Source of the DNA: an uncultured virus (IMG/VR IMGVR_UViG_3300036715_002448)
Lineage: Duplodnaviria > Heunggongvirae > Uroviricota > Caudoviricetes
IMG/VR virus record: IMGVR_UViG_3300036715_002448
Location: 30,164 to 94,163 of that record
Strand: one strand, 5' to 3'
DNA length: 64,000 nt
How positions within the stretch are numbered: position 1 is the first letter of the stretch; each line of letters begins with the position of its first letter. Positions 6,714 to 62,026 of the stretch are shown piece after piece. Below the pieces are notes generated by a model that was given only the letters and a program-made list of their open reading frames with translations, was not told where the DNA came from and did not search any database. The position numbers and the translations under genes are program-made.

Positions 6714-7958
6714 TCATTTTGATGACTTTATCTTTTTCTTCAATTCAATCAAATCGGATTTATACATTTCGGTAGCAGTTAATTTTTGAATTTCTGCAAA
6801 TTGATTTCTATTTTCTTTTATGTTATTTAATAAATCTTCATATTTTTCTTTTGTTAAGTTGTAAATTGGTAAATTTAATAAATAGTCAAAAGAATCATTT
6901 ATTTTTTCAATTTTGGTAAGTTCTAAGTCTGTAATAATATCTATTTTAGGCCTATTATTAATCTTAAGTTTTCCGGTTATTACAAGCTTAATAAATTCAG
7001 CTTTATTAGTAAGAACCTTGTGGTCATAATCTAATTCATCTAATTTATATTGTTTTCTTTTATCATAAAAAGTTAATCTAAAATTGATAAAATAGTTTAT
7101 TAAAGCAGTAGCTGAGTCAAATTTAATTATCTTGTTGTGCTCATCTAAACAAGTAATGTTTTCTGTTTCAGTTTCCGTCATTTTCAAAAGCCAATCTAAT
7201 TGATTTTTTTTCTGACGGGTTTGCAATTCATTACGATTGAATTTAATTATATATTCAATCTTAGATTTTTTGCAGTTATTATCATAATATAAAATATGTC
7301 CTTTTTCTTCCAAGTTGTTTAAGTGAGCCTCGTATTTTTGGTATGTTAACGAAGGTGGTAATTCTGTTACTTTAACAGTTGATGTGTTAACAATTTCATA
7401 TTTTCCTTTTAGTTCAAATGTTGATGTATCATTATCTACTTTAATAATTTCACCAGTATATTCGCTCCACCAAGGTAAAGGTTCTTTGAATTTTTTACCA
7501 TCTAATGCTAACAAACAAGCATCTATAACATCATTAACATTTCTATTTAAAATATTTGTAGCAAAACCAACTGCAATACCAGAAGTACCATTTAATAAAA
7601 TAACTGGAATAATTGGCAAAAACCAATTTGGTTCTATTTCCAAGTCTTCTTCTATTTTATATTTCAAAAGATCAAAATCTTTATATAAAGTTCTAAAATT
7701 AGCATTTAATTTTACCGAAACATAACGTGCTGCACCTGGTTCGGTAGACCTTAAAGAACCAAATTGTCCAATACCATCAAATAATGGCATGGAATTTTTA
7801 AAAGTTTGCGCCATTCCAATAATAGCTCCATCCATAGAAGAATTATGCACTACTATGTTAGATTTTCCTATTACAAAATTCTCATATTTAGGGACAGTTA
7901 TATCATAAAATCGGTTTGGAGACTCTAATATATTTTTTTTAATGCTTTTTATTTTCAT
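6714..7958 (-). CDS. gp52: Split-intein C fragment (39 aa) + C-terminal part of topoisomerase II medium subunit (gp52/GyrA-like)
   Basis: MKIKSIKK..FYDITV..ENF..IVVHN|SSMDGAII, then catalytic GAARY and NGTSGIAVGFAT. Confidence 0.93.
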   Translation of the reverse strand: MKIKSIKKNILESPNRFYDITVPKYENFVIGKSNIVVHNSSMDGAIIGMAQTFKNSMPLFDGIGQFGSLRSTEPGAARYVSVKLNANFRTLYKDFDLLKYKIEEDLEIEPNWFLPIIPVILLNGTSGIAVGFATNILNRNVNDVIDACLLALDGKKFKEPLPWWSEYTGEIIKVDNDTSTFELKGKYEIVNTSTVKVTELPPSLTYQKYEAHLNNLEEKGHILYYDNNCKKSKIEYIIKFNRNELQTRQKKNQLDWLLKMTETETENITCLDEHNKIIKFDSATALINYFINFRLTFYDKRKQYKLDELDYDHKVLTNKAEFIKLVITGKLKINNRPKIDIITDLELTKIEKINDSFDYLLNLPIYNLTKEKYEDLLNNIKENRNQFAEIQKLTATEMYKSDLIELKKKIKSSK

Positions 7959-9306
7959 TTTTTATTAAAGTATTTATAAATTCTTTACATTTTACTAAAT
8001 TTTCTTCAGGTGTTTCAGTGTCCCAAATAACAAGAACTCTAAAACCTCTTTCTTCTGCTAATTCTATTTTATTATTAAAGTACTCATATGTTTTAATATA
8101 ATTTTCTTTAGTAAAAGGATGCACCCAATTCAATAAGGAATTATCATTTCTATAGTCAGGATGCCAATTAATGCCATTATATTCTATTATAATTTTTTTA
8201 CTTAAAATTGTAAAATCATAAAGTCTGAACATGTCATTTTTACACAAAAAGTATTCATTTTTATTATTTACAGGACTTGCATAAAACAAATCTTCTTTTA
8301 TTAAATTTAACTCCGTTGTCAAATAATCAAATAGTTTAATAAAAATTTTTTCTGCTTCTTTAGAATATCCATTAAATACTACTCTAGGGTCGTACCCATA
8401 TTTTTCAATACAAGTTAATCTACTTTTTTGATATGCTTTTTTGTAAAATAAAGGATCCTCTTCTAATCTTTTTTTAAGTGTATTATTTCTTTTTTCTACA
8501 ACTATAGGACTTTTTATTGCTGCTGTAACTCCTAAATGTTCTACTAGTGATTTTTTTATTTTTTCTTTTACATCAGCTCTTTGAAATACGTTTGTTATAC
8601 CTTCAGTTCTTAATAAATTACGCTCCCATGCTTCTCTAGATTTTGATTTTTTAGATAAGTTATGAGCCGTTCCACAAGATAATAAATATGATTGTTTTTT
8701 TAATTCTTTTGCACATACAATAGAGCATGTTTGTTGTCCACTTTTATTTTTAAATAAAGTTCCACATATTTTACAAGGTACTATTCTCTTACAAGAAGGG
8801 CACAATGTTAGATTTCTATGTAAATCTTTTTCAAAACAAGCATTACCTACATTTTTATAAGTATACTCGGTTCCACAATTAGTACATATCCTATTAGATT
8901 TTCTTAATATATTTAGTTCTATTGCATTCATATTGTTTTATTTTATATATCTTTGCAAACTTACCAAATATACCATCACGGCAATAGATATAATAATTTA
9001 TTTAATATATTTTAAAATATCATCAGATTCCAACAATTCATCTGCTCTTTTCCAAATGCCGTTAGTTAGTAAAAAAGGATGATTTGCTGTGCATTTTATT
9101 AATTCGCCGCTTTCTAATAGTATTTCATATTCTACATCTGTTATTTGTCCTAACCTAGGAAAACATCCTTCTGAAAAAACAAATTTGTTATTTTTTTCGT
9201 CAAAAGAAACAACTTTCATTTTTTTATTAGGAAATTTTTCTACCCAGTCACCTATTAGAATATAAGAACCATCTTCTAATAAAATAGGAGTATCATAAGC
9301 AAGACA
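7842..9306 (-). mobile_element. Split intein + nested endonuclease cassette in gp52 (IntN 9001-9306, IntC 7842-7958)
   Basis: Cys1 CLAYDT, block B CTANHPF, terminal HN, Ser+1; removal restores YHHGS-SSMDGA. Confidence 0.9.
7939..8931 (-). CDS. Free-standing Vsr-like/EDxHD homing endonuclease nested in gp52
   Basis: N-terminal CxxC motifs and repeats; C-terminal LYDF..KIIIEYNGINWHP..GFRVLVIWD. Confidence 0.85.
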   Translation of the reverse strand: MNAIELNILRKSNRICTNCGTEYTYKNVGNACFEKDLHRNLTLCPSCKRIVPCKICGTLFKNKSGQQTCSIVCAKELKKQSYLLSCGTAHNLSKKSKSREAWERNLLRTEGITNVFQRADVKEKIKKSLVEHLGVTAAIKSPIVVEKRNNTLKKRLEEDPLFYKKAYQKSRLTCIEKYGYDPRVVFNGYSKEAEKIFIKLFDYLTTELNLIKEDLFYASPVNNKNEYFLCKNDMFRLYDFTILSKKIIIEYNGINWHPDYRNDNSLLNWVHPFTKENYIKTYEYFNNKIELAEERGFRVLVIWDTETPEENLVKCKEFINTLIKNENKKH

Positions 9307-9540
9307 GCTTCCATGATGGTACATTTGATTTGCTGCACACCTACCACTTAATTGAAATACTTTTAGTGGTTTTTCATTTAAGGTTTTCCAAACTCTAATG
9401 GATTCGTTTATAATTTTCCTTTGAGTTGGTTTAAAACCATCTACAACAGATGGAATTGCTCTATTTTCTACAGTGTATTTACCATATTCAGCATATTCAC
9501 TGTCTAAATACTCCGTAATAGTTTTTTGTTGAGTGTTCAT
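8998..9540 (-). CDS. gp52: N-terminal 78 aa of gp52 topoisomerase + split-intein N fragment (102 aa)
   Basis: RAIPSVVDGFKPTQRKI and YHHG motifs followed by CLAYDTPILL..TANH. Confidence 0.93.
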   Translation of the reverse strand: MNTQQKTITEYLDSEYAEYGKYTVENRAIPSVVDGFKPTQRKIINESIRVWKTLNEKPLKVFQLSGRCAANQMYHHGSCLAYDTPILLEDGSYILIGDWVEKFPNKKMKVVSFDEKNNKFVFSEGCFPRLGQITDVEYEILLESGELIKCTANHPFLLTNGIWKRADELLESDDILKYIK

Positions 9541-9541
9541 A

Positions 9542-11404: not shown

Positions 11405-11426
11405 TTATGCTTTATTTTTCTTAAAG

Positions 11427-11454
11427 ATTATATGAGTATTAATTTAAAAAGTTT
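11427..11454 (-). promoter_or_regulatory. Class B promoter motif AAACWWW-N13-CATATAAY (also 26760-26787, 55758-55785, 62798-62825)
   Basis: Same bipartite motif with identical 13-nt spacer, 22-27 nt upstream of gp39, gp44, gp41-N and gp45. Confidence 0.7.
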
Positions 11455-15569: not shown

Positions 15570-15607
15570 ATTTTTATTTAGTTTTATTTTATATATCTTT
15601 TTGATTT

Positions 15608-17491
15608 TTAAAAAATGTCATATATGTCTTCTACTTTTTCTCCATCTTCATAAGTTTCATAAATTTCATCTATTAATTTCTGTTTATCAGGATCTAATAA
15701 GTCAAAAAATTCTTCTACAATTTCTTCAAAGTCATTTGTTTCCAAGATTGCTGCCGCGGTTATAGAACTCATAAAAAGGTCATCATGACCTGCCTGTGCA
15801 GAATAGGTTCCATTTGGATTTCTTGAAAACATTTTAGCCTCATCTACTGTGTTCGTTTCTAATAATTGCATCCTTCCATTACCTATACATTCTCTTAAAA
15901 ATTCTGAATATAGTATTTTGTTTTCTTTTCCATAACGAATTCCTATAGATTTATGAATAGAAGTTACTCTATGTTTGAATTTAACAAAAGTTTCTTCATC
16001 AAAATCGTTTTTATGTGGATATAAAGTGATAAGATTTTTAACAAGTTCAGATCCATAAGTGTTATATTCTAACATTATTCGGATATTTTCTTGATTAAAA
16101 ATATTTACAGATAACTCATAAAGAATTTTTGCATAATCTTCACCACTAATTAAATTATTTCTAAAAACTCCAATTTGCTTTAATCCGAAAAATTTAGAAA
16201 AATTAGCCGCATTTTTGATATTCAAAATGTCACTATTTTCTAATGTAACAACTTCGAATATGTTAATAACAGAATAGTCACGTCCAACTCCTTCAGCTAA
16301 ATCAACTGAAAATACATAAAAATTAGGGGAATTGAAAAAATCATCTACATCAACATCAGGATCCCACTTTAAATTAGAATAATCTACATATATATCATCT
16401 AATGCATCAAATTCTCTAAATACAAAATCTTTTTTATTCCTATCTAAACGTAAAATTTGTTCAGCATTAAGCAATAATGAAGATGATGAAAGAAATTGGC
16501 AACCATATTGTTTGTTAAATTCTTCTTCTGACCCCAAATTGGCTATTTCACGTGCTTTCCAAGCTTCATCTCTACCTGGAACCTGCCACCAATCTACTCT
16601 TAACGGTTTATATTCGTTCATTCCGTCCAATGCATCTTGGAACAAGTCATGAAATAAATCATATCCATTAGGAGTTGATGAAATAATTACCCTTGATACT
16701 TTTGAAGAAGAAAGTGTAGGATAAATATTACCATAAAAAGGCCTTTTAATATTTTCTTGAATATGAGCAAACTCATCCAAGAATAATAAATGAATAGTAA
16801 AACTAATACCAGAAGTTTTTGTAGTGTTTTGTGTTATAATACGACATTTGTTATCAAATATCATAGTACCTACATCTTTTTTCATTATACCTGGTTTTAA
16901 GAAAAATGGAAGGCCTTCAATAATATTTCTAATTTTGTCCATAATTTCTTTTGTAGTAGCACCCTTATTCGCAATAAGTAGTGCATTTTTTTCAAATTGA
17001 AATAATGTAAACCAAATTAAAAAAATAGATGAAGTAATTGTATTATGGGAAAGTATATCATTAGTCCAATATCTGTGATCGTCTGAATTAACAGTTAAAT
17101 CAAACATTGCAACTTTTTTATTGTATTTTTCTAAAGAAGTAATAGTGGAAATTCCAGATTTTGTTATAATAGTAGACCCTATTTGAAGATCTTTAACAAA
17201 AACCTCTTTGTAATTTTTATCAAAAACTATGTGATTATCAGCACATTCTAAAAACTTACCACAGGAAGTTTTTAATTTATATATGGTGTATGGTTGTGTT
17301 TGATGTATGTTTGTAGCTGGTTGCCATCCTGAGTCAGTGTCGACAAAATAACCATCTAACTCAACAGTGTTTTGGATTTTTTTAGTTATGTCATCTTCAT
17401 CTAGTTTAGAATTTCTAAATTCATATTTTTCAATTAATTGTATAATTAATAATATAAAAAAAATTAATGGTCTTTTAAAAATTGTAAACAT
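15608..17491 (-). CDS. gp17: Split-intein C fragment (150 aa) + C-terminal part of terminase large subunit
   Basis: CADNH..FDLTV..HRYWTNDILSHN|TITSS, Walker B LFLDEFAH, SSTPNG, DLAEGVGRDYS, GHDDL. Confidence 0.95.
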   Translation of the reverse strand: MFTIFKRPLIFFILLIIQLIEKYEFRNSKLDEDDITKKIQNTVELDGYFVDTDSGWQPATNIHQTQPYTIYKLKTSCGKFLECADNHIVFDKNYKEVFVKDLQIGSTIITKSGISTITSLEKYNKKVAMFDLTVNSDDHRYWTNDILSHNTITSSIFLIWFTLFQFEKNALLIANKGATTKEIMDKIRNIIEGLPFFLKPGIMKKDVGTMIFDNKCRIITQNTTKTSGISFTIHLLFLDEFAHIQENIKRPFYGNIYPTLSSSKVSRVIISSTPNGYDLFHDLFQDALDGMNEYKPLRVDWWQVPGRDEAWKAREIANLGSEEEFNKQYGCQFLSSSSLLLNAEQILRLDRNKKDFVFREFDALDDIYVDYSNLKWDPDVDVDDFFNSPNFYVFSVDLAEGVGRDYSVINIFEVVTLENSDILNIKNAANFSKFFGLKQIGVFRNNLISGEDYAKILYELSVNIFNQENIRIMLEYNTYGSELVKNLITLYPHKNDFDEETFVKFKHRVTSIHKSIGIRYGKENKILYSEFLRECIGNGRMQLLETNTVDEAKMFSRNPNGTYSAQAGHDDLFMSSITAAAILETNDFEEIVEEFFDLLDPDKQKLIDEIYETYEDGEKVEDIYDIF

Positions 17492-18925
17492 GTGTTTATT
17501 ACATTATTTTTGTTTTGTTTTATATCGTTTTCCCAAACTTCTAAAACTTCAAATCCTTTAGAATTTGCAAATTCTATTTTTTGTTTATCATAATTCCATT
17601 TTTCCTGAGCAGTCATTTTTAAATTTTTATTATAATAATCAGCTTTATATTTTATTGGATTGCAGTGCCAATAGTCTCCATTAATTTCTATAATTTTTTT
17701 ACCAACTTTAAAATCAAACCCTATCCATTTTCCATGTTCTTCATCAAAAATTTCAAATTCATTTTCATAGCAAATTGCATCAGGATAAATTTTCAAAAGT
17801 TCACTAATAACAGTTTTTGACATGTTTGAAATTCTTGTTGAATTAATCTTTTTAGGTTTTCTAGAAAATTCACCATTTTTGTATTTTTCTTCAATCTTAG
17901 CCGACCATTTAGAATTTCTATCATTAAATCTTTTAGTTCCTTCAATTTCTCCTAGTTTAGCAATACATTTTTCTAAAGTAAATGTTTTTTGTCTTTCTGA
18001 TATTTTTTGTTTTGCTTCATCTTCCGAAAATCCTTTATTTAACCAGTATCTTTTTTGATTAGGATTAACAATATCAAATGTTTTTAAAAAATTATCTCTA
18101 TCTGTGTCATTTTTATATTTTTTAAATTTTTTTGAAAATGGACTTATAGACTGTCTTTGTTCTAAAGTTGTTTTTGATTTATGATTGTTATTCATTTCGC
18201 CAGTTCTATTAAATGATAGTCTTTTACTTTCATTTTTAGATACTATTAAAGAATTTGGATATTTTAATTTATATTTTTCAGTTGTCCAGTTGTCATGTCT
18301 TTGTAAATGAGAAAAAATTGATTTTGTAGCAACTCCGCAAATTTCACATTTAATATAATCATCAGGATATTTAATCAAAAGTTCTTTAGACTTTTCTAAT
18401 TCTATTAATTTTTTTTTAAGTTCTTTTTCTTTAGTATCATTTTTTCTACAATTGGATGAACAATATATTGCGTAACTTTTACCAAAAAAACTAGGTTCAT
18501 TGTCGCACATTTTACATTTTACAGTAGACGTTAAATTATTTTTTACATAGAAATATCTTTTTCTAATACTTGAATTAATAGGTAAAAATGATGTTAAATA
18601 GATTAGTTCATTTAACTCATTTTTGGATATTCTTGAAAATATATTACAAGATTTAGATTTTAAAATTTTTTCTTTTATGTCCATTTTGATATAAATTTGT
18701 ATTTTATTTATATATCTTTATGGATGCAAAGTTTTATGTTCTACAAGACAATTTAGTAAAAAAAGTGTATTATTTTTCTAGAATTTCTAGAATTTTATAT
18801 AATTTAACTTTTATTTTACCTAAAATAGATGGACTAATTGCACTATAATAAAAATCACCTATTGTAGTATCTTTAATTTCTCCATTAGGATATTTTATTT
18901 TAATTTTGCTATTATAAAAGGTACA
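17042..18925 (-). mobile_element. Atypically split intein + nested endonuclease cassette in terminase (IntN 18773-18925, IntC 17042-17491)
   Basis: Inserted in Walker A APRQCGK|T; Cys1, terminal HN, Thr+1. Confidence 0.9.
17464..18684 (-). CDS. Free-standing Vsr-like/EDxHD homing endonuclease nested in terminase
   Basis: Zn-finger N-terminus, YWLNKGFSEDEAK repeat, FDFKVGKKIIEINGDYWHCNP, VLEVWEND. Confidence 0.87.
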   Translation of the reverse strand: MDIKEKILKSKSCNIFSRISKNELNELIYLTSFLPINSSIRKRYFYVKNNLTSTVKCKMCDNEPSFFGKSYAIYCSSNCRKNDTKEKELKKKLIELEKSKELLIKYPDDYIKCEICGVATKSIFSHLQRHDNWTTEKYKLKYPNSLIVSKNESKRLSFNRTGEMNNNHKSKTTLEQRQSISPFSKKFKKYKNDTDRDNFLKTFDIVNPNQKRYWLNKGFSEDEAKQKISERQKTFTLEKCIAKLGEIEGTKRFNDRNSKWSAKIEEKYKNGEFSRKPKKINSTRISNMSKTVISELLKIYPDAICYENEFEIFDEEHGKWIGFDFKVGKKIIEINGDYWHCNPIKYKADYYNKNLKMTAQEKWNYDKQKIEFANSKGFEVLEVWENDIKQNKNNVINTCLQFLKDH

Positions 18926-19315
18926 CTTACCACATTGACGCGGGGCCATAAGAATATCCCATCTATTATGTTGAAATGTCCTAAGAATTTCCTCTTGGTA
19001 ATCACGGAGAGTAATTTGTTGATAACCATCATCAGTCATTACTTTACAATATGTATTTGCAAAATATACAATATCACGAGCACAATGCCTAAGTTCATCC
19101 AATTCAAATTGGCTATAATTAAATACTAATTGTCCTCGTCTAAAATTTTGGTCACCTTCATAAAAAGGATTATCTCTAGTGACATATCCTTCTTTCATCG
19201 CTAGTACAAGTTTATCAACTTTTTCAGTAGTCCATACTAGTTTATCTGCATTATCTAAGTTAATTTCTGTATCATCTTTTATTCCTGTGAATGAAGATGA
19301 TAGTGGATTTGCCAT
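18770..19315 (-). CDS. gp17: N-terminal 130 aa of terminase large subunit + split-intein N fragment (51 aa)
   Basis: CARDIVYFANTY, LRDYQEEIL, APRQCGK then CTFYNSKIKI. Confidence 0.93.
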   Translation of the reverse strand: MANPLSSSFTGIKDDTEINLDNADKLVWTTEKVDKLVLAMKEGYVTRDNPFYEGDQNFRRGQLVFNYSQFELDELRHCARDIVYFANTYCKVMTDDGYQQITLRDYQEEILRTFQHNRWDILMAPRQCGKCTFYNSKIKIKYPNGEIKDTTIGDFYYSAISPSILGKIKVKLYKILEILEK

Positions 19316-50910: not shown

Positions 50911-51033
50911 TTTACCAATACCTGATTGTCCGTGTAATAAATATAACATACCTTCTTTTGTGTCGAAGTTAAGTTCTTGTTCTACATTGCCATAGCTATT
51001 AAAATTTTTGAAACGTAAGTTCAAAATTCTCAT
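50824..51033 (-). CDS. gp46: N-terminal 41 aa of gp46 + split-intein N fragment (28 aa)
   Basis: FKNFNSYGN, GQSGIGK then CLDPSTKLEI. Confidence 0.92.
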   Translation of the reverse strand: MRILNLRFKNFNSYGNVEQELNFDTKEGMLYLLHGQSGIGKCLDPSTKLEINIKDDIVRNQFLEFLKNK

Positions 51034-52613: not shown

Positions 52614-53768
52614 TTATACAATATTGTCAGCCATTATTACTTCATCAGTTTCTATCAGTCTCATATAGCTGTATTGAACATTATATTTACACTTCATATT
52701 CTTCCCTGCACCATTCCTTACTTTAAGAAGCTTAAGCCAATACTCGTTTCTAATTTGCATTTCTGGTATTTGGATAATTCCTAACAATACATCCACAGTG
52801 TGAGCTAGTGCTGCAGATTCAGAAATATCCGACATATTAACATTAGCAGAGTCCCATCCTTGTTTTCCAAATTGTGTTGCAGTTATAACTAACCAATTAT
52901 TTCTAATTGCCATAGCTCTTAAATCTTCGGCAATTTGTTTAATTTTCATATAAGTATTTTCTGAATTAGGATTACGATAATTCATCAAAATATTTATATA
53001 ATCGATTATTATAACTTGAAATTTTATTCCTTTAGCTACTTCTAATTCTCTTAAATATAATTCAACATCCGGGACTGATGCAGCTGATGTTGCAAATTCT
53101 TTAACATGAAGTTGACCTGGTGGAATAATTCCATTTGATATATTCAAAAGCTTATTTTTTATATAATCTTGCTTTTTAGACATTTTTTCATAATCTTCTA
53201 TTTTAATATCTAATAAATTAGCACCCATACGTTGATTATAATTAACTTCCGACATTTCAGCAGTTATAACAGCAACATTATTCCCAGCTCTTGAGTGATT
53301 TACTGCTTCGTTTGCCAAGAAAATAGAATTGTGTGAAAGTATATCATTTGTCCAATATCTATGATTTTCATCATCAACTTGAATGTCATACATATTTTCA
53401 AAATATCCTAAATTAGAGACTTTTTCTACCGTATCTAATCCTGTTTTTGTAACAATTTTATCATATCTTGGATCTTTACTAAAATTATTTAAATCTTTTA
53501 CAAAAGTTTCCCTCCACAATTCATTAAAAACAATATGAGTATCGGCACACTTTAATTTTTTACCTTGATTAGTTTCCAATTCCCAAACTTCATAAGGAAC
53601 AGTTTTTCCAATTCCTTTAATCGAAGACCATCCTTTATCGGTTTCTATTTCCCAATCATAAATTTCAAAATAGTCTTCGTATTTATGTTCTACTAAGTCA
53701 GAAGGTTTTATTTCTAAATTAGGTTTTGTAAAAAGTTCTAACAACTCATTAAATTGATTATCGGTCAT
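52614..53768 (-). CDS. gp41: Split-intein C fragment (147 aa) + C-terminal part of DnaB-like replicative helicase
   Basis: CADTH..YDIQV..HRYWTNDILSHN|SIFLANEA; TAEMSE, IIDYINI, IAEDLR, TATQ, SESAAL. Confidence 0.94.
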   Translation of the reverse strand: MTDNQFNELLELFTKPNLEIKPSDLVEHKYEDYFEIYDWEIETDKGWSSIKGIGKTVPYEVWELETNQGKKLKCADTHIVFNELWRETFVKDLNNFSKDPRYDKIVTKTGLDTVEKVSNLGYFENMYDIQVDDENHRYWTNDILSHNSIFLANEAVNHSRAGNNVAVITAEMSEVNYNQRMGANLLDIKIEDYEKMSKKQDYIKNKLLNISNGIIPPGQLHVKEFATSAASVPDVELYLRELEVAKGIKFQVIIIDYINILMNYRNPNSENTYMKIKQIAEDLRAMAIRNNWLVITATQFGKQGWDSANVNMSDISESAALAHTVDVLLGIIQIPEMQIRNEYWLKLLKVRNGAGKNMKCKYNVQYSYMRLIETDEVIMADNIV

Positions 53769-55139
53769 TTATATTTAATTTAAAAATTCTATGCATTTTT
53801 CTATAACTTGTTTTTTATCTTGTTTAAAATCTGATTCCCAAATAGTCAAAACTGTATAATTATAAGAATTAGCTAATTCAACTTTTTGCTTATCTATCTC
53901 CCATTTTTCATAAGCAAATTTTTTAGTTCGTTTATTAAAATAGTCTTTGTCGTATATACTGGGATTCATGTGCCAAAAGTCGCCATTAATTTCTATAATT
54001 TTTTTGCCAACTTTAAAATCAAAACCCATCCGTTTTCCACGTTCTTCATCGAAAATTTCAAATTCATTTTTATAACACATTGCATCTGGATAAAATTTTA
54101 ATAATTCATCAATAACAGTTTTTGAAATGTTTGAAATTCTAGTAGAATTAATCGATTTTGGTTTTTTTGAAAACTCTCCATTTTTATACTTAGATTCAAT
54201 TTTAGCAGACCATTTAGAATTTCTATCATTATATTTTTTTATTCCTAATTCTTCTCCATATTTAGCAATACATTTTTCTAAAGTGAAAGTTTTTTGACGT
54301 TCTTTAACAAATTGTTTAGATTCTTCCTCGGAAAATCCTTTATTTAACCAATACTGTATTTGATTTGGTCTTTTAGCATTTTTAAAATAATTTGGGTTTC
54401 GTTTGTTCCATTTTATTATTCCAGCACTTCGTTTTTTGCCAATTTCTAACATTTTTTGTTTAGCTTCATTTTCAGTTAAACCCATTTTAATATAAGTTTC
54501 AACCGTTTGTCGGCCAAAATTACCAGTTTCTTTTTTTGTTTTTAAAGATTTTTCTTGAATTTTATTAGTTGTAATCTTTAATTTATTTTTTGCATCTTCT
54601 AGTGAAAACCCTTTATTAAGTAAAAAATCTATTGAACAAGTTCCAAACTTTTTAGAACGAATATCTTTAATTTGCTCGATATTCCAACCTCTATCCAACC
54701 AATATGCTTCATTTTGTGCATGTGTCGAATAAATTCCTAAACAATTAAATGCACTAAAACGAGTGTTGTATGTTTTAAAGTCTTGTTTTGTTATAAGTTC
54801 AAAATACTTAGTTGAATATGACTCGTATAAATTTTCAAAATATGTATGATTTTCTAAATTTAAGTTTAAAATACAAGATTGTACTATAGTAACAAATTCA
54901 GTAAAACAAACAGGAATAGTTTTCCAATTAGTATATTTTTTTCGTAATTTGTTTAATTTAAAATCACAGTATAAATCTTGAAGTACCATAAGTTTTATTT
55001 TATATCTAAGCAAGTGAACGAAATATAGGGAAAAAGCCAATTATTTCTTAACTAAGTTGTAAAATTTTTCTATAGATATATTTAAAATTTCTAGTGTTTT
55101 TGTATTACGGATTTTAATAATAGTATCTTTATGGGCACA
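53328..55139 (-). mobile_element. Atypically split intein + nested endonuclease cassette in gp41 (IntN 55044-55139, IntC 53328-53768)
   Basis: Inserted in Walker A GEPNIGK|S; Cys1, HN, Ser+1. Confidence 0.9.
53775..54989 (-). CDS. Free-standing Vsr-like/EDxHD homing endonuclease nested in gp41
   Basis: YWLNKGFS repeats, FDFKVGKKIIEINGDFWHMNP; ATG 54989 preferred over TTG 55040 because a class A variant lies just upstream. Confidence 0.87.
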   Translation of the reverse strand: MVLQDLYCDFKLNKLRKKYTNWKTIPVCFTEFVTIVQSCILNLNLENHTYFENLYESYSTKYFELITKQDFKTYNTRFSAFNCLGIYSTHAQNEAYWLDRGWNIEQIKDIRSKKFGTCSIDFLLNKGFSLEDAKNKLKITTNKIQEKSLKTKKETGNFGRQTVETYIKMGLTENEAKQKMLEIGKKRSAGIIKWNKRNPNYFKNAKRPNQIQYWLNKGFSEEESKQFVKERQKTFTLEKCIAKYGEELGIKKYNDRNSKWSAKIESKYKNGEFSKKPKSINSTRISNISKTVIDELLKFYPDAMCYKNEFEIFDEERGKRMGFDFKVGKKIIEINGDFWHMNPSIYDKDYFNKRTKKFAYEKWEIDKQKVELANSYNYTVLTIWESDFKQDKKQVIEKCIEFLN

Positions 55140-55730
55140 CTTACCTATATTGGGTTCACCAGCGTAAGCAACTAAAGTTCCTAATGAATATCCGCCTAAT
55201 AAAGAATCTATCCAATTGTGATTAGAAGAAAATTTAGTACCAGCAGGAGTTATATGTGACTCAGGATTAAAAAAGTCACTACCTAAATTTGTATTAAAAG
55301 ATATCGAATTTCTTTCATTAATAAGTGTTTTTACTTTGTTAATAACATCCTTTACATTATTTGGGTCTACTTTAACAGTCTTTACATATTCAATTGTATC
55401 TACCAATGATTTATCTAATGACTTCCATAGTACCCAAGCTTGACAAGTTTCAGTCAACCAATCTGGATCATAGTCACTTAACTTTTCATCAAAAACAACA
55501 TTTATAATACTTTCTGATATTTGGGTTTTAAATTGTGCTTGATTAGCTAATGTTTTTAATTGAGCTACCGAAGGAACCTGGTTAAACCTTTCATAAAATT
55601 GTTTTGTAATATTATGAAGGACTGAAAGCTGTTTATTTTCATAAAAAGACTCAACTACGTTTTTTAAGTATTTTGGATTTTCTCTTGTATAAAGATAAAA
55701 AATTTTTTCAAAAGCATCAGAACCAACCAT
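55041..55730 (-). CDS. gp41: N-terminal 197 aa of gp41 helicase + split-intein N fragment (32 aa)
   Basis: LGSDFF, IDSLLGG, AGEPNIGK then CAHKDTIIKI. Confidence 0.92.
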   Translation of the reverse strand: MVGSDAFEKIFYLYTRENPKYLKNVVESFYENKQLSVLHNITKQFYERFNQVPSVAQLKTLANQAQFKTQISESIINVVFDEKLSDYDPDWLTETCQAWVLWKSLDKSLVDTIEYVKTVKVDPNNVKDVINKVKTLINERNSISFNTNLGSDFFNPESHITPAGTKFSSNHNWIDSLLGGYSLGTLVAYAGEPNIGKCAHKDTIIKIRNTKTLEILNISIEKFYNLVKK

Positions 55731-55820: not shown

Positions 55821-56130
55821 AATAATCAAATTTTAAAATTTTATAAACCTTTTTCCTTGGTGGGGCTACATTACCGGACTCTATGAGAGTGTTAAGAAGT
55901 TTATCGGTTTTTTCTTTGTCATTATCCAGATATTGCAATAAAAAATTGTATACAAAAAAATGACCCGTTGGATCATTTTCACTAATCCTTCGTTGTTCTA
56001 ACGCCGCCATTTGTGTTGAACTACTTATCCAATCTAAATAAAAGTATTCAAAATCTTCTATTGTTGGAAAATTAGGGTCACTTTTATATGACCCTAATAT
56101 GTACTTTAATTTTAAGTTTTTCAAATCCAT
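55819..56130 (-). CDS. Hypothetical protein
   Basis: ORF start overlaps the UvsX stop codon. Confidence 0.6.
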   Translation of the reverse strand: MDLKNLKLKYILGSYKSDPNFPTIEDFEYFYLDWISSSTQMAALEQRRISENDPTGHFFVYNFLLQYLDNDKEKTDKLLNTLIESGNVAPPRKKVYKILKFDY

Positions 56131-57602
56131 TAGTCAACATTTAGTTCTCCTGAGTCATCAATTAAGTCATCTAGATATTCATCTGTAATTTCATCATCTA
56201 ATCCATAAGTAAACCTTGGTTTGATGCATTTTTCATTAATGGCTTCTAATACTTCTTGGTTAAAAACTTCCGCGGTAAACAATTTACTTGGAGGAATTCC
56301 TTCTCCTAAATGTTTAACAATAAAATTACGAGCAGTTTCTTTAGGTGTAAAATACACTAATTCCCCTGTTTTAGCATTAAAAGGTTGTGCTAAAGTTTTG
56401 TCTTTATCATTTAGCTTTTCATATTCTTTTGCTGTTAGTATGTTTCCTTTTTGAATTCCACAAACATTCCAAGAAATATATTCTTCCATTCCAATATAAG
56501 GATTCATACCCATATCCCATCTAATATGTAGTTTAATAGATTGAGGTTTAACATAACGATTTTTTAACGCAGTTGCAGTAACAATAATGCCTGTTTGAAC
56601 AGCCCCATCTTTTAATTTTGCTTTTGATAAATTAACAATAATAGAAGGTGCGTAAATAATACCTCCACCACCTGAAATATTAACAGAAGGAAAAATTCCA
56701 ACTGACGCGTATGTATGGTTCGACATAATCATGGGAATACCTAAACAAGATAAGTCAGAAGTAATAATACGAAACAATGATCTAATTATCTTAGCACGTG
56801 TCATATCTGCAGCAGTATTACCACCTAATGCATCATCAATTTCTTTAGTAGTCGCTAACATACCTAAAGAGTCTAAGAAAATTGCAATCTTTGGAATTTG
56901 AAAACCTTTTTCTTTAGCTTCCATTAATTTTTTAACTAAAGTAGTAATAGAAGTTCTAAACTTAGCTAAATCTGACATTGGTTGATGATCAAATTTTGTA
57001 CCATCAATATCAAATCCTTTAATAGAGTCAACATCAATAGCACCTTCAGTATCATAATAAACTACATAATAACCAAGTTCTTGTGCATTTCTTGCTATAT
57101 TTAACATTGCAAAAGTTTTTGCTGTGTTATGTGAAGATATTCCATCACACCAATATCTATGATTTTCATGTAAAACTTCCCAATCATACACTTCTTCTTC
57201 CCCAATTTCAACATTGCTAATTACCTTTTGATAGCCTGTATTAGTTAAAATTAAGTCACCAACTTTTAAATTTTTAGTAAATTCAAAATCGAGATTAAAT
57301 CTACTTTCTATTAAATGATCTTCCGAAACTTTGATTTTTTTATCAATTGTTTCTAATTGAAAAATCTTCCTTGGTTTTTTAATAAAAAAGTCACCTAACA
57401 ATTGATAACCATCTGGTGTATCTATTAAAAAATTAGAATTTGTATAATTTAAAACTAAATCGCCTGCTTCAACAAATTCGCTGTATTTTTCACAATGCAA
57501 ATCAAAAATACGGTCAAAGTCTTCACTTGCAATAGCTTGAATTTTTTCAATATCCCATTCAGGATACATTAGCAATTCTTTTATTTTTTCTTTTTTTGTC
57601 AT
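56130..57602 (-). CDS. uvsX: Split-intein C fragment (~159 aa) + C-terminal part of UvsX/RecA-like recombinase
   Basis: SEDH..VYDWEV..HRYWCDGISSHN|TAKT; YDTEGA, FLDSLGML, DMTRAK, NHTY, SGGGG; ATG 57602 or TTG 57611. Confidence 0.93.
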   Translation of the reverse strand: MTKKEKIKELLMYPEWDIEKIQAIASEDFDRIFDLHCEKYSEFVEAGDLVLNYTNSNFLIDTPDGYQLLGDFFIKKPRKIFQLETIDKKIKVSEDHLIESRFNLDFEFTKNLKVGDLILTNTGYQKVISNVEIGEEEVYDWEVLHENHRYWCDGISSHNTAKTFAMLNIARNAQELGYYVVYYDTEGAIDVDSIKGFDIDGTKFDHQPMSDLAKFRTSITTLVKKLMEAKEKGFQIPKIAIFLDSLGMLATTKEIDDALGGNTAADMTRAKIIRSLFRIITSDLSCLGIPMIMSNHTYASVGIFPSVNISGGGGIIYAPSIIVNLSKAKLKDGAVQTGIIVTATALKNRYVKPQSIKLHIRWDMGMNPYIGMEEYISWNVCGIQKGNILTAKEYEKLNDKDKTLAQPFNAKTGELVYFTPKETARNFIVKHLGEGIPPSKLFTAEVFNQEVLEAINEKCIKPRFTYGLDDEITDEYLDDLIDDSGELNVD

Positions 57603-58861
57603 TTTATACAATTTTATTTTTTATAAATTCTATGCATTTTTCTAATTTAAAAGGATCATCATCCCATACAACAAGCAAATCGTATCCTTTTTGAATTATT
57701 AAATTATTTTTATAATTATCGAAAATTAAATTATCAAAATAATTCATTTTTTTTAATGGGTTAAACCAAGTTAATTTTTCTTCTTCGGTTGCATCTGGTT
57801 TAGGATGAAATGTTGTTCCATTGTATTCTATTGCTATTTTTTTAGAAGGTATAACAAAATCATAAAAATATAATCGTTTTGTTAAATCATCATAAATAAA
57901 ATATTCAGGGTTATTAAAATATACATCATCAATACATAAATTTAAAGAAGAAATAATAGACTCAAATAATTTAATTGAAACACTTGATACTCTAGGTAAT
58001 CTTAGCCTTTGTTTTATTTTAATTTGGTTTTTATCTTCATCGGATTTGGAATTCATTGTAGATCTCCATTTAATCTGCCTTTCTATAAATTTATTAGTTC
58101 CTATTTCCTTTCCATATTTTAATATACAATTTTCTAATGTAAAAGCACCTTGTAACTTTCTTTCTACTAATGCATTTTTAGCATCTTGTAAGTCCAGTCC
58201 TTTGTTTAAATAATACTTTAATTGCATGTTTGTTAACATTTCTTTGGTACCATTTTTATGATTTTTCCAAAGATTAACAAATCCAGTTCTTTGTTTATTA
58301 TAAATTTTTTCTCTTGCTTCTATTTCGGTAAATAACAAATTAGTATTAGGATTAATTTTGTCTAAATAAAATTCCCATCTATTGCTATTACCCTTAGACT
58401 TATTTATTTTATCTAAATTTGGATTATTTTTTAATGTTGATTGTATTTTTTTTGCTATTTCTATATTACAAGTTGCCTGCAATTTTTTTATTTTTGATAA
58501 TCCAAATTCTTCGCTATATCCTCTATCTAAATAGTACTTTAAATTTCTACAATTAGGATGTAATTTTAAAAGTTTATAAGGATTACCAAAATTACGTTTT
58601 TTATAATTATCATACAAATGGAAATTTTCACAATAAAACTTATATAAATTTTTTAAAACAGTTAAATTAGGATTATCTGAAAAATTACAACTTATTTGTA
58701 TATTTTTATGAAATTCTAAAATATCTACAGGATTTTTTTTATGTATTGTTTTATTTTTAACAGAGTTTTCAAAATATAAATCACATATTGATAATTTTGT
58801 GTTTTGCATTAGGATTAGATTTTATTTTATATATCTTTATCCTTTGATTTTTTTGTACACA
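57126..58861 (-). mobile_element. Atypically split intein + nested endonuclease cassette in uvsX (IntN 58784-58861, IntC 57126-57602)
   Basis: Inserted in Walker A GESG|TAKT; Cys1, HN, Thr+1. Confidence 0.88.
57604..58809 (-). CDS. Free-standing Vsr-like/EDxHD homing endonuclease nested in uvsX
   Basis: YYLDRGYS/YYLNKGLD repeats, FYDFVIPSKKIAIEYNGTTFHP, LLVVWD. Confidence 0.85.
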   Translation of the reverse strand: MQNTKLSICDLYFENSVKNKTIHKKNPVDILEFHKNIQISCNFSDNPNLTVLKNLYKFYCENFHLYDNYKKRNFGNPYKLLKLHPNCRNLKYYLDRGYSEEFGLSKIKKLQATCNIEIAKKIQSTLKNNPNLDKINKSKGNSNRWEFYLDKINPNTNLLFTEIEAREKIYNKQRTGFVNLWKNHKNGTKEMLTNMQLKYYLNKGLDLQDAKNALVERKLQGAFTLENCILKYGKEIGTNKFIERQIKWRSTMNSKSDEDKNQIKIKQRLRLPRVSSVSIKLFESIISSLNLCIDDVYFNNPEYFIYDDLTKRLYFYDFVIPSKKIAIEYNGTTFHPKPDATEEEKLTWFNPLKKMNYFDNLIFDNYKNNLIIQKGYDLLVVWDDDPFKLEKCIEFIKNKIV

Positions 58862-59074
58862 GCCTGATTCACCAACAATAGCAACCCCTTTATTACAAGG
58901 AATTCCTTTAAATAAGTCTCCTGAAAATAACGCATTTAAATGATAATTTCCAGTACCAATATATTCTAACGTTTTCGTAAAATCAGTACTAGAAATTACA
59001 CCACCAAATTGATTAATCGTTTTTAATTCTTTTCTTACTTCATCAAGAGAAAAAGTTTTTAATTCCTTTGCCAT
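58781..59074 (-). CDS. uvsX: N-terminal 71 aa of UvsX + split-intein N fragment (26 aa)
   Basis: IGTGNYHLNALFSGDLFKGIP..IVGESG then CVQKNQRIKI. Confidence 0.9.
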   Translation of the reverse strand: MAKELKTFSLDEVRKELKTINQFGGVISSTDFTKTLEYIGTGNYHLNALFSGDLFKGIPCNKGVAIVGESGCVQKNQRIKIYKIKSNPNAKHKIINM

Positions 59075-59090
59075 ATTTAATTTTTATTTT

Positions 59091-60047
59091 TTAAAAAAGA
59101 GTATTTTTGTAATATGAAAGTACTGGATTTAGCGGAGGTAATCCTGCAGCAACAATAACTCTATTAAGAGGATTGATTATAACATTTTCAAATTGTTTAT
59201 CAATATCCATTTTTGGAGCTATTTCAGATGGGAAAATACCTGGTTTAAATGCAAATACATCACAAGCATTTTCATTTGTGTAATAAAATTTAATTTTATC
59301 ACCTGTATGTATTAATTCATATTTTGTTTTTAAGTTTGCTTTATTTACAAGATAATTGAAATTTCCTGCTGCCCTAACATGAACTGGACATTTTGAAGCA
59401 ATTTCTAATTTATCAACATCATTTAAAATGTATTTATTATAATCAGAAATTGAAAAAGAAACAGATAATTTTTCCAGATTTGTTAATTTGAATTCTTCTT
59501 TAATTGATTTAAGAAGTTTTACTAAATCTGCATTGTCTTCATATTTAAGCGTTTTCTTTTTGAATATTACTTTAATAACTTCAATCAACTTTTGTCTTGC
59601 AAATGGAGGTGATGATGATTGAACAATTTCAAGTCCTGTTGTTTTAATATAAGTTAATGGATCAAAGTTTTTGCCATCTTTCCAAACTATGTTTTGTACA
59701 TATTTTTTCTTTGCAACAAAAATTGCTGATTCAGCAATAGTTTCAAGTTCAAAATCCAAAAAGTTATTTGTATTTCTAACAGTAGCAAAATCATTTAATA
59801 CATTTTTAATGAACTTAGCAAGTCTAAAATCATTAAGAGCCATAACAAAGTCTTTTTCAGTTCCTTGCCATTTAACAGCTTCCATAACTTCACCAAAAGA
59901 AAGATAACCAGAATTGTGAACTAATAAATTATTTGCGATAAATGTATGCGTATCATCGTGCATTTCTATATCATAAACATATTCATCTTCAAAATCTCCT
60001 AAACATTCAACTGATTCTATTTCCTCAAATTCATAGTCAAATTCCAT
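59091..60047 (-). CDS. gp43: Split-intein C fragment (45 aa) + palm/thumb of family B DNA polymerase
   Basis: VYDIEM..HTFIANNLLVHN|SGY; AKKKY, TGLEIVQSSSP, PVHVRAA, GDKIKF. Confidence 0.94.
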   Translation of the reverse strand: MEFDYEFEEIESVECLGDFEDEYVYDIEMHDDTHTFIANNLLVHNSGYLSFGEVMEAVKWQGTEKDFVMALNDFRLAKFIKNVLNDFATVRNTNNFLDFELETIAESAIFVAKKKYVQNIVWKDGKNFDPLTYIKTTGLEIVQSSSPPFARQKLIEVIKVIFKKKTLKYEDNADLVKLLKSIKEEFKLTNLEKLSVSFSISDYNKYILNDVDKLEIASKCPVHVRAAGNFNYLVNKANLKTKYELIHTGDKIKFYYTNENACDVFAFKPGIFPSEIAPKMDIDKQFENVIINPLNRVIVAAGLPPLNPVLSYYKNTLF

Positions 60048-61654
60048 ATTTTTTCTTTAAGATTATTAATAATTTGTGTTTTGTTTAAATTGTAATCTGA
60101 TTCCCAAATTACTATAGTTGTTATATTATGTTCTTCGTTTAAAGTTTTATACCTTTCTAAATCATTTTTCCAAATATCAATAGCTTTTAATTTCTTATTA
60201 AAGAAAAATGCTTTATCGTTAGCTGAATAAATTTCTGGATTAGCGTGATATAAGTCTCCATTGAATTCAATACATAAATTTAATTCATTTATAAAATAGT
60301 CAAGTTTAACATATTTTCCTAATGATTTTAAATATTTACCAAATTCCATATTTTTAGTTGCATAATATGTAGTTAAATTTAATTCTTCTATTGATTTATC
60401 TAAAGTAGAAAAAAGCTCTTGAGACACATTAGAATATAAATGACTAGTAGTTTTTTCTATAAATTCTTTGTATTTTTTTAAACCAATTTCATTACCATAT
60501 AATCTAATAAGATTGCTAGATGTAATACCTTTTTGTTTACAAACATTTGCATATTTCTTTAATCCTTCAACATAACCATATTTTTCAATAAAATAATCTT
60601 TTGAATTTCCGACATAGGCTTGCTTAGCTTTGTAATTTTCAAACCTTATTTTACCTTCAGTATCACCATATTTACTTATTAAATTTTTTTCTGTTATAGC
60701 TCTTGATTTATTAAATTCATCAAATTCTGATTTTGTCCAACCGTACTTTAATTTTTTATATTCAAATTTATTTTTTTCTGCTTGTAATTTACAATAATTT
60801 TCATATATTTCTCTACCTTTAATATCACCATGTCTATTTATAGAATTTTCTAACGTTATACCTAATTTTTTCCTTTGTATTTGCTTATCAGATTCATTTA
60901 TATTAAAAGCAAAACAAGTTATATCATTTAGTGTATTAAATACTCTATTTTTTGTTTTTAATTTATATGAAGGAAATTTATCTATTAAACAACTTTCACA
61001 AACACATAAATTATAAGTAGTTTCATTTACTTTTTTAGTTAGTTCATCTGATTTACCTATTTTTTTAATAGTAGAATTGCTTATTTTATATGAACTACCA
61101 TCATAAAATATACTATTATTACAAATAATACACTTAGCAGAATTAGGAAAAAATTTTAAGTCAATATAAGCATAAATATTTTTATCATTAGTTGATTTTT
61201 GTTTTTTAATTAATTTCTTTAAATCGAGTATCTCCATATTATATGTTTTATTTATATATCACAAAGATACTTAATAAAGTGATTAAATTTACAACTTTTT
61301 TACACCAATAAGTAAATCATTTTTAACATCTATTTCAGATGCTTTTATTTTTATTTTTGCACCATTTCGCAAAACCATTATACTATGGTCATCTGTTATT
61401 TCAATAAATTTACCACTTTTTGATATAACTTTCCATTTTTGTTTTTTGACTTTGTGTCTAATGATATGTTTTACTGACGACCATTTTAATTTATCATCCC
61501 AATTTAGTATTTTTACAAAACCTTCATTTAATGTTACAACTTCATTTTGATTCAAATCTATTGTGTAGCCATTTTTTGAATAAAATTTAAAAAACTCTTC
61601 TATTGACAATTCTCCTAAAATATTATCAATTACAGTAGATGATTTTTCAACACT
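59913..61654 (-). mobile_element. Ser1/Ser+1 split intein + nested endonuclease cassette in DNA polymerase (IntN 61292-61654, IntC 59913-60047)
   Basis: Inserted in motif C YGDTD|S; block B ITDDHS. Confidence 0.9.
60017..61237 (-). CDS. Free-standing Vsr-like/EDxHD homing endonuclease nested in gp43
   Basis: CIIC/CESC, IT..N.I..(Y/H)G...G repeats, LDYFINELNLCIEFNGDLYHANP, IVIWESD. Confidence 0.85.
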   Translation of the reverse strand: MEILDLKKLIKKQKSTNDKNIYAYIDLKFFPNSAKCIICNNSIFYDGSSYKISNSTIKKIGKSDELTKKVNETTYNLCVCESCLIDKFPSYKLKTKNRVFNTLNDITCFAFNINESDKQIQRKKLGITLENSINRHGDIKGREIYENYCKLQAEKNKFEYKKLKYGWTKSEFDEFNKSRAITEKNLISKYGDTEGKIRFENYKAKQAYVGNSKDYFIEKYGYVEGLKKYANVCKQKGITSSNLIRLYGNEIGLKKYKEFIEKTTSHLYSNVSQELFSTLDKSIEELNLTTYYATKNMEFGKYLKSLGKYVKLDYFINELNLCIEFNGDLYHANPEIYSANDKAFFFNKKLKAIDIWKNDLERYKTLNEEHNITTIVIWESDYNLNKTQIINNLKEKIWNLTMNLRK

Positions 61655-62026
61655 ATCCGTGTCACCATATTTGTAAATAGTTCCTTTTATTTTTGGCACT
61701 TTAAATCCTTCTGGTACTCCTAATTTTCTATGAAGTTCAACATCTTTATGAAAAATTTCATGAAAATACATTTCAATCATTTTTTCTGTATGTCTAATTG
61801 CTTCTTGTCCTTGAAGTGTAATAGTTTCAGCAATATCTGAATTGTAAAAATGAAAAAATTCATTTCCGAACGCTCCGTAAATAGAATTAATAGTTAATTT
61901 AATGGATTGTTCTTGTGATGCGCAATTTTTTGCAAAAGTCTTGAAGGCTTCAAGTTCTTCATTACTAAGCGTAGAATAGTCAAGGTCTTCAAGTTCTTGT
62001 TGTGTTAACGATTGAGGGTTTATCAT
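61289..62026 (-). CDS. gp43: Fingers/motif B-C part of family B DNA polymerase (124 aa) + split-intein N fragment (121 aa)
   Basis: KLTINSIYGAFGN, ITLQGQ, YGDTD then SVEKSSTV. Confidence 0.93.
   Translation of the reverse strand: MINPQSLTQQELEDLDYSTLSNEELEAFKTFAKNCASQEQSIKLTINSIYGAFGNEFFHFYNSDIAETITLQGQEAIRHTEKMIEMYFHEIFHKDVELHRKLGVPEGFKVPKIKGTIYKYGDTDSVEKSSTVIDNILGELSIEEFFKFYSKNGYTIDLNQNEVVTLNEGFVKILNWDDKLKWSSVKHIIRHKVKKQKWKVISKSGKFIEITDDHSIMVLRNGAKIKIKASEIDVKNDLLIGVKKL

Follow-up and report, generated by a model that had tools for sequence, protein, structure and literature searches.

The IMG/VR record IMGVR_UViG_3300036715_002448 comprises 94,163 bp, of which the last 64 kb (64,000 nt; positions 30,164 to 94,163 of the record) constitute the window analysed here. 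The record has a G+C content of ~28% and carries all of its genes on the minus strand. The window contains six gene triads, linked within 56 kb, in which gp52, TerL (gp17), gp46, gp41, UvsX, and the C-terminal half of PolB are each interrupted by what reads as a split intein. Each triad consists of an N piece (an N-extein followed by an N-terminal intein fragment, IntN), an intact open reading frame (ORF) for a nuclease, and a C piece (a C-terminal intein fragment, IntC, followed by the C-extein; Table 1). The boundaries between exteins and inteins were taken from the translations. All 18 ORFs are intact, and the ORFs and their translations placed the six triads, with nucleases of 330-406 amino acids (aa), where a preliminary description of this DNA had located them. 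Similarly, joining of the exteins yielded sizes (gp52, 453 aa; TerL, 607 aa; gp46, 556 aa; gp41, 434 aa; UvsX, 402 aa; PolB, 397 aa) and junction motifs (gp52, YHHGS-SS; TerL, RQCGK-T; gp46, GIGK-S; gp41, NIGK-S; UvsX, GESG-TAKT; PolB, YGDTD-S) identical to the earlier figures. Neighbouring pieces may overlap, as is the case for the end of the gp52 nuclease ORF and the start of the gp52 C piece (20 nt) and for the final 29 nt of the UvsX N piece, which overlap the start of the nuclease ORF. Together, the intein and nuclease inserts amount to 10.3 kb, or 18% of the 56-kb stretch, and the G+C content is 23.4% in the nucleases, 25.1% in the inteins, and 28.5% in the exteins.

Table 1. Pieces of the six triads, promoter-like sites, and the seventh split intein. 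Positions are those of the window, except for the seventh intein, for which they are those of the record; (-), minus strand.
Feature	Position	Composition	Evidence and remarks
gp52 (topoisomerase II GyrA-like), N piece	8998..9540 (-)	N-extein 78 aa (9307-9540), ends YHHGS; IntN 102 aa (9001-9306), starts CLAYDTPILL, canonical split	Pfam DNA_topoisoIV 1-56, Intein_splicing 47-92; IntN matches PDB DnaE inteins, E 1e-5
gp52, nuclease	7939..8931 (-)	330 aa	Pfam DUF7487; PHROG 22677 and a homing-endonuclease PHROG
gp52, C piece	6714..7958 (-)	IntC 39 aa (7842-7958), ends VVHN; C-extein 375 aa (6717-7841), starts SSMDG	Pfam Intein_splicing 122-155, then DNA_topoisoIV 51-429
TerL/gp17, N piece	18770..19315 (-)	N-extein 130 aa (18926-19315), ends RQCGK; IntN 51 aa (18773-18925), atypical split	PHROG 5989 terminase, positions 91-169
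TerL/gp17, nuclease	17464..18684 (-)	406 aa	Pfam DUF559
TerL/gp17, C piece	15608..17491 (-)	IntC 150 aa (17042-17491), ends ILSHN; C-extein 477 aa (15611-17041), starts TITSS	Pfam Terminase_6N; PHROG 5989, positions 170-334
gp46 (SbcC/Rad50-like), N piece	50824..51033 (-)	N-extein 41 aa (50911-51033), ends GIGK; IntN 28 aa (50827-50910), atypical split	From translation
gp46, nuclease	49637..50761 (-)	374 aa	PHROG 22677; six-nuclease alignment
gp46, C piece	47713..49629 (-)	IntC 123 aa (49261-49629), ends FVSHN; C-extein 515 aa (47716-49260), starts STIAE	Pfam Intein_splicing, SbcC_Walker_B, SMC_N; PHROG 77 SbcC-like, E 3e-66
gp41 (DnaB-like helicase), N piece	55041..55730 (-)	N-extein 197 aa (55140-55730), ends NIGK; IntN 32 aa (55044-55139), atypical split	From translation
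gp41, nuclease	53775..54989 (-)	404 aa from likely ATG 54989	421 aa from upstream TTG 55040
gp41, C piece	52614..53768 (-)	IntC 147 aa (53328-53768), ends ILSHN; C-extein 237 aa (52617-53327), starts SIFLA	Pfam Intein_splicing 121-155, then DnaB_C
UvsX, N piece	58781..59074 (-)	N-extein 71 aa (58862-59074), ends VGESG; IntN 26 aa (58784-58861), atypical split	PHROG 97 UvsX-like, positions 16-83
UvsX, nuclease	57604..58809 (-)	401 aa	PHROG 22677; motif scan; six-nuclease alignment
UvsX, C piece	56130..57602 (-)	IntC 159 aa (57126-57602), ends ISSHN; C-extein 331 aa (56133-57125), starts TAKTF	PHROG 97, positions 84-331; PDB UvsX structures, E 1e-38 to 3e-28; ATG 57602, 1 nt past nuclease stop
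PolB C-half ('gp43B'-like), N piece	61289..62026 (-)	N-extein 124 aa (61655-62026), ends YGDTD; IntN 121 aa (61292-61654), Ser1, canonical split	Pfam DNA_pol_B, Intein_splicing 11-92; PHROG 1918, positions 6-106 (N-extein); IntN matches Aes123 PolB1 intein 9hth, E 3e-6
PolB, nuclease	60017..61237 (-)	406 aa	PHROG 22677, E 5e-61
PolB, C piece	59091..60047 (-)	IntC 45 aa (59913-60047), ends LLVHN; C-extein 273 aa (59094-59912), starts SGYLSF	Pfam Intein_splicing 117-155; PHROG 1918, positions 107-367 (C-extein)
GATATATAAA motif, gp52 nuclease	8937-8951 (-)		
GATATATAAA motif, other nucleases	18702-18716, 50769-50783, 58821-58835, 61246-61260 (-)		
Seventh split intein	13960-15772 (-)		15 kb outside the window (locus L099); no nuclease gene
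Seventh intein, N piece	15245-15772 (-)	Ends VQTK, then IntN 99 aa	Pfam Hint, 30.9 bits (cut-off 29.7)
Seventh intein, C piece	13960-15180 (-)	IntC 42 aa, ends HN|TDGQN	64-nt spacer after N piece

Evidence that the two exteins of each triad belong to one protein was found in related IMG/VR contigs. Indeed, uninterrupted alleles, for which a survey of relatives had been proposed, were retrieved, and the extein ends were collinear and adjoined without a gap in 275 of the 291 scorable gene copies (for gp52, 11 different uninterrupted and three fractured copies), the test being that the tblastn match to the N-extein ends one base before the match to the C-extein starts. Per gene, the junction was uninterrupted in 16 of 18 copies (TerL), 69 of 72 (gp46), 71 of 79 (gp41), 67 of 67 (uvsX), 51 of 51 (PolB), and in 12 of 15 relatives (gp52), while gp52 was fractured at the same site in three relatives (L189, L192, and L194). 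The UvsX C piece, when used as a pattern query for related loci, recovered no relative; sequences flanking gp41 loci and a protein search supplied the UvsX relatives instead. In addition, PHROG profiles continue over the breaks of UvsX (83|84), TerL (169|170), and PolB (106|107). UvsX is not named by Pfam and owes its identity to PHROG 97 and to UvsX structures in the PDB. As to PolB, the preliminary description was right in listing a 'gp43' among the fractured genes, but the 397-aa product is not a complete polymerase; it is the C-terminal half only (PHROG 1918 being a family of 382 positions), since PolB is encoded in separate genes throughout the clade (relatives L023, L033, L034, L204, and L205). 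The window lacks the N-terminal exonuclease half; neither ORF 62028-62774 nor ORF 62885-64000, both considered as candidates for it, gave a match in PDB, Pfam, or PHROG searches. The former ORF, upstream of PolB, is conserved (58-61% identity in relatives) and weakly resembles ORF-237 of phage PTm1.

All six pairs of intein fragments kept the catalytic residues of class-1 inteins, namely Cys1 (Ser1 in PolB), the block-B His, the terminal His-Asn, and Ser or Thr at position +1. Among 13 aligned fractured TerL genes (34-58% identity), Cys1, the block-B His, and the His-Asn pair were invariant and Thr+1 nearly so. Where the pieces are long enough, Pfam Intein_splicing matches occurred at the correct positions, with N-blocks closing the N pieces and C-blocks opening the C pieces. 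Similarly, the TerL IntC matched the PDB inteins gp41-1, VidaL (6vgv, E 2e-3), and the TerL consensus CatC (6dsl, E 0.05). From these features we infer that the halves would associate post-translationally and trans-splice to yield full-length gp52, TerL, gp46, gp41, UvsX, and PolB-C.

The six inteins are not split alike. The single architecture attributed to them earlier holds for the order of the genes in the triads, whereas a uniform intein split does not, as four of the six have a short IntN and a long IntC. The split position is canonical in gp52 and PolB and atypical in TerL, gp46, gp41, and UvsX, with an IntN of 26-51 aa, an IntC of 123-159 aa, and all four insertions inside Walker-A loops, P-loops being a known hot spot of intein insertion (PMC4760082). 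In these four, a near-complete IntC would be completed by an IntN peptide of 26-51 aa. By their sequences, they can be assigned to the class of AceL-TerL, GOS-TerL, and VidaL. Natural atypical inteins with a short IntN have been called rare (PMC11766414), and the IntN length is 25 aa in AceL-TerL, 37 aa in GOS-TerL, 16 aa in VidaL, and 15 aa in PolB16 (PMC13014065, PMC11766414, PMC10189870). The TerL IntN, with 51 aa, exceeds this published range of 15-37 aa, and its relatives consistently have 44-62 aa. Its tail, which is conserved in relatives as R-K-L-T-x-L-E-K-x-K-x-x-L-Y, looks helical, and the N-terminus of the TerL IntC in relatives shows a conserved, hydrophobic, helix-like stretch. 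The PolB intein has Ser1 and Ser+1 at YGDTD|S, an insertion at PolB motif C, and is not fully cysteine-less, as one Cys occurs in the IntC, away from the junction.

The nucleases form a group of their own. The core motif NG..[WYF]H occurs exactly six times on the coding strand of the 94-kb contig, once per triad. All six proteins match PHROG 22677 and align over their C-terminal ~200 residues, with an invariant core of D, E-x-N-G, H, P, K, and W. A profile built from the six had I-Bth0305I (3r3p) as its best PDB match (E 0.04). An AlphaFold2 (AF2) model of the TerL nuclease had a C-terminal domain with a predicted local distance difference test (pLDDT) score of 85-94, and Foldseek ranked 3r3p first for this model (probability 1.0, TMt 0.60, E 0.011), followed by E. 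coli Vsr (1vsr/1cw0). On the ranking of these matches rather than their E-values, the six proteins are assigned to one predicted family of Vsr-like, I-Bth0305I-type homing endonucleases; three rankings, obtained independently, are consistent with the Vsr-like family of PMC2677866. The DUF559 assignment suggested beforehand was reached by the TerL nuclease alone (22.0 bits versus a Pfam cut-off of 20.6), and for the other five the Vsr-like label comes from their mutual homology, the profile match, and the fold match. The TerL and gp41 nucleases are 72% identical over their C-terminal 196 aa and have unrelated N-terminal halves. The N-terminal halves best match nucleases with the same target elsewhere (gp52 with L192/L194, TerL with L101/L118, gp46 with L019, and PolB with Aes508). 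Nuclease halves are mixed among cassettes across loci, unlike these target-tracking N-terminal halves. This suggests that the homing endonuclease genes are modular and may be retargeted by domain exchange. At least 189 relatives of the nuclease family are present in IMG/VR, and a long IntC lies directly downstream of the nuclease in 73 of the 80 loci retrieved, mostly followed by TerL, but also by gp41 or gp46.

The leaders of the nuclease genes carry possible expression signals. A late-promoter-like motif, GATATATAAA[TA][TA]AAA, was found 8-25 nt upstream of five nuclease ATGs, and a variant one base shorter precedes the ATG of the gp41 nuclease. The extended motif also precedes the genes for the sheath, the portal, the prohead protease, a gp15-like protein, and the baseplate; it had 25 matches versus 10 expected, a number not reached in any shuffle. 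The plain T4 late-promoter octamer TATAAATA was not enriched in the window (22 matches versus 19.7 expected). Hairpins beyond those of shuffled sequences occur in the nuclease leaders of TerL (z -4.2), PolB (z -2.7), and uvsX (z -2.4), where they surround the motif and extend up to the start codon or into it. The nuclease genes would be read late, from a promoter of the virion type, and in three or four cases the promoter would lie in a hairpin loop, so that on longer, early transcripts the nuclease start would be masked; the hairpins and the motif together suggest late-only translation of the nucleases. As the C pieces start between -31 and +7 nt relative to the nuclease stop, their translation may be coupled to that stop.

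The explanation that best fits these data, to which we give a probability of roughly 0.85, is that of selfish, trans-splicing inteins accumulated together with homing nucleases; this figure is a joint one for the whole explanation, including the reading of the 94-kb contig as about one third of a T4-core jumbo phage genome from microbial-mat and sediment metagenomes. Conserved enzymes of this phage would have accumulated seven selfish intein elements, one of them outside the window (Table 1) and six still having an intact free-standing nuclease gene, and each nuclease would cut the intein-less allele of co-infecting relatives and then be copied in with the intein halves (homing). Several points weigh against this explanation. 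Every Pfam Intein_splicing match in the six triads scores below the gathering threshold. The nuclease profile matches 3r3p at an E-value of only 0.04, and the fold match is weak (E 0.011) because 210 of the 406 residues of the TerL nuclease model have low confidence. The gp52 and gp41 nuclease leaders have no hairpin beyond shuffles, and that of gp46 is marginal. The IntC tree described below is a quick one of 107 columns, with many 'uvsX' labels that stem from Pfam RecA matches or were given by default. Finally, the contig represents about a third of the predicted genome, so that extra intact gene copies are possible in the remaining two thirds.

How the set of inteins came together was approached with this quick maximum-likelihood tree, which comprises 78 IntC sequences. 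The tree accounts for the host-gene label with eight changes, versus a shuffled mean of 41, and the four atypical inteins fall in four site-specific groups, that of gp46 with L019/L021 (support 99) and that of uvsX with P0002 (support 98), a protein whose sequence is 84% identical to the UvsX C piece. The IntC sequences are 50-55% identical to same-site inteins elsewhere versus 23-38% between genome-mates. The divergence of these inteins would predate this genome, because same-site inteins elsewhere are closer to them than their genome-mates, and the set is best described, on sequence grounds, as an accumulation of independent, old, site-specific lineages that presumably arrived or were inherited separately. 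A recent intragenomic duplication of inteins was also considered and was rejected on the identities within the genome and to same-site inteins and on the site-specific groups. This history argues against the preliminary description, which had called the six pairs a co-evolved set. That the pairs were selected within this genome to be mutually orthogonal is unlikely, even though chimeric cross-splicing of essential enzymes should be disfavoured by selection, two structural split classes are present, the IntN sequences are divergent, and the canonical pairs are opposite in charge (gp52, IntN -6 and IntC +4; PolB, IntN +6 and IntC -15). Indeed, besides the grouping of the atypical inteins by site with those of other phages, the charge polarity is common to gp41 and uvsX, the first IntN strand (C-x4-6-IKI) is common to gp17, gp41, and uvsX, leaving gp46 as the one short IntN without it, and related TerL inteins accept each other's IntN fragments in vitro (PMC11766414). 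The simultaneous activity of all seven split inteins in one cell, with no harmful cross-splicing, is judged from the sequences to be close to an even bet, leaning slightly to the negative.

Other readings concern the fate of the broken genes. Intein halves that no longer splice might serve as non-covalent docking domains for the enzyme halves, as is reported for a fragmented NrdA of an Aeromonas phage, assembled via interaction domains that stem from a mobile element (PMC3045599). This is very unlikely for the present phage, as every class-1 catalytic residue is retained in all six pairs and is invariant or nearly so among TerL relatives of 34-58% identity, while the homologous inteins gp41-1, VidaL, Cat-TerL, and Aes123 PolB1 are proven splicers. 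The contig being from a metagenome assembly and covering about a third of the predicted genome, one might also take the broken genes for decaying pseudogenes or an assembly artefact, with working copies elsewhere in the genome. No second copy of any extein was found in the 94-kb contig; together with the intactness of all 18 ORFs, the syntenic position of the broken genes with the single copies of relatives, the recurrence of the architecture in independent contigs and cultured phages, and the fact that a run of another study contains 92% of the words sampled from a 6.5-kb stretch, this leaves such a reading highly improbable. Hardly any credence is given to the idea that the inserts are group I or group II introns with a nuclease ORF, spliced out of the RNA: although group I introns are also known to harbour Vsr-like nucleases (PMC2677866) and the annotation of the Aes508 PolB includes an intron as well as an intein, no Rfam family reached its gathering score anywhere in the window, hence no intron was found, and each break is flanked on either side by HINT blocks that share the reading frame of the exteins.

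The phage that carries the inteins probably has a genome of ~300 kb and would be a jumbo phage, because relatives have lengths of 294 kb (estimated completeness, 91%), 254 kb (83%), and 69.9 kb (23%). Its DNA is present in two microbial-mat and two sediment metagenome runs, and the 6.5-kb stretch mentioned above had 92% of its sampled 31-mers in contigs of one run from the second study. The closest cultured TerL relatives are Tenacibaculum phages (33% identity), and no Shine-Dalgarno-like leader was found before any of the 18 gene starts examined in the window; both features hint at a Bacteroidota-like host. The gene order PolB-C, uvsX, gp41, (gp47), gp46 is conserved in relatives. Located among the virion genes of the window is also a gene (29820-31310) whose 496-aa product has a RimK-type ATP-grasp domain (Pfam E 5e-38).

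The seventh split intein resembles gp41-7 of the marine metagenomes (see below) in being devoid of an endonuclease gene. Its junction K|TDG resembles nucleotidyltransferase motif I. Searches of Pfam, the PDB, and PHROGs assigned no family to its host protein, and the single lead is a match to DUF6267 in the Atlas.

Fractured genes of this kind extend well beyond the contig. In relatives, several homing stages occur side by side: empty alleles, fractured alleles with a nuclease, those with a nuclease remnant (L001, L027, and L189), and those with no nuclease (L021/G001). About 80 public proteins start with a UvsX-type IntC, many of them continuing with a RecA domain and others with a PhoH, AAA, UvrD, or DnaB domain. 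The non-RecA hosts (PhoH-like, AAA, UvrD, and DnaB-type) were seen in public metagenomes (P0055, P0070, P0071, P0076, and P0080-P0085), P0055 being located on the 462-kb record of a huge phage, which also gave the best match to TerL. Loci L108, L135, L157, L179, and L180 each have two HINT-like matches separated by a few kb, both within TerL in L108, L135, and L180. In 17 other records of 27-348 kb, 0 to 6 matches to the nuclease family were counted, including degraded ones, and PTm1 and Aes508 have one such nuclease each. In the 69.9-kb record IMGVR_UViG_3300036670_000250 (CheckV, 23% of the genome), five of the six genes fractured here also carry inteins, at the same site in four of them. 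On these comparisons, multi-fractured genomes are taken to be a trait of the lineage, and the contig stands out, within the sample seen, by its six intact nuclease genes. The preliminary description knew of no single genome with this density of split inteins: a literature search found no described genome with many of them, which is not proof of absence, whereas uniqueness is contradicted by the 69.9-kb relative.

Split inteins are standard tools of protein engineering, in which mutually orthogonal sets are sought after (PMC7090010), and the contig offers seven linked pairs that presumably need to work side by side. If they do, and without harmful cross-splicing, no larger natural set of split inteins that function together would be known, and this one, with four short-IntN members (26-51 aa) and one Ser1/Ser+1 member, would constitute a panel for multi-fragment protein ligation as well as a natural test of how orthogonality arises. 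In addition, the empty, nuclease-bearing, and nuclease-less alleles show the life cycle of intein invasion and permanent gene breakage, and the inserts in replication, recombination, and packaging enzymes show how phages tolerate selfish elements.

The closest known systems are the fractured genes that Dassa, London, Stoddard, Schueler-Furman, and Pietrokovski described in 2009 from GOS metagenomes (gp41-1 to gp41-9, IMPDH, DnaE, NrdA, NrdJ, DNA ligase, and terminase loci; PMC2677866), as had been recognized in the preliminary description. The layout is the same, often with a Vsr-like free-standing endonuclease ORF, as are the phage origin and the T4-late-promoter-like elements and hairpins in the nuclease leader; gp41-7 lacks an endonuclease. 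In contrast, the loci of Dassa et al. are short unlinked metagenome fragments, whereas six are linked in 56 kb here; gp52, gp46, UvsX, and PolB are absent from the enzyme types listed there (PMC2677866), and gp41 is broken within its P-loop instead of at the site of cyanophage gp41-1. With AceL-TerL, GOS-TerL, VidaL, and PolB16, the atypical inteins share the short IntN, an IntC of more than 100 aa, the TerL host, and the Cys1 nucleophile; they differ in that four occur in one genome, in their +1 Ser or Thr instead of Cys, and in an IntC of 123-159 aa with conserved N-terminal extensions. As to the nucleases, I-Bth0305I (3r3p) and E. coli Vsr, of the EDxHD/Vsr-like family (PMC3239194), have the same ExNG..W/Y-H core. 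However, I-Bth0305I is intron-encoded, and the nucleases of the contig differ in having 330-406 aa and long variable N-terminal regions with Cys clusters and repeated helical modules.

Among cultured phages, the PolB genes of Aes508/Aes123 (the source of the 'CL' PolB1 intein, PDB 9hth) and of PTm1 have the same YGDTD|S site, the same Ser1/Ser+1 residues, and a PolB divided over A and B genes. The order in Aeromonas phage Aes508 is gp43A, a homing endonuclease gene, gp43B-1 with the N-intein, a Vsr-like ORF, and gp43B-2 with the C-intein. Tenacibaculum phage PTm1 has the same layout, and the homologues of the PolB nuclease are annotated as 'VSR endonuclease' in both. These phages differ from the contig by a single nuclease of this family per genome versus six, and the split PolB of Pseudomonas phage MIJ3 has an HNH nuclease instead (PMC6892783). 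The nearest counterpart among uncultured phages is the 69.9-kb record IMGVR_UViG_3300036670_000250 (loci L021, L152, L205, and L206), a related phage with 40-55% aa identity. Its TerL, gp46, gp41, and PolB genes are interrupted by split inteins at the sites seen in the contig, and its uvsX has intein matches as well, but it kept the nuclease gene in the TerL cassette only and has its uvsX insertion at another site. Judged from its sequence, this phage looks like a later, post-nuclease stage of the same process. The contig itself is an extreme case of the known fractured-gene kind and not a new kind, each locus type being widespread in metagenomes.

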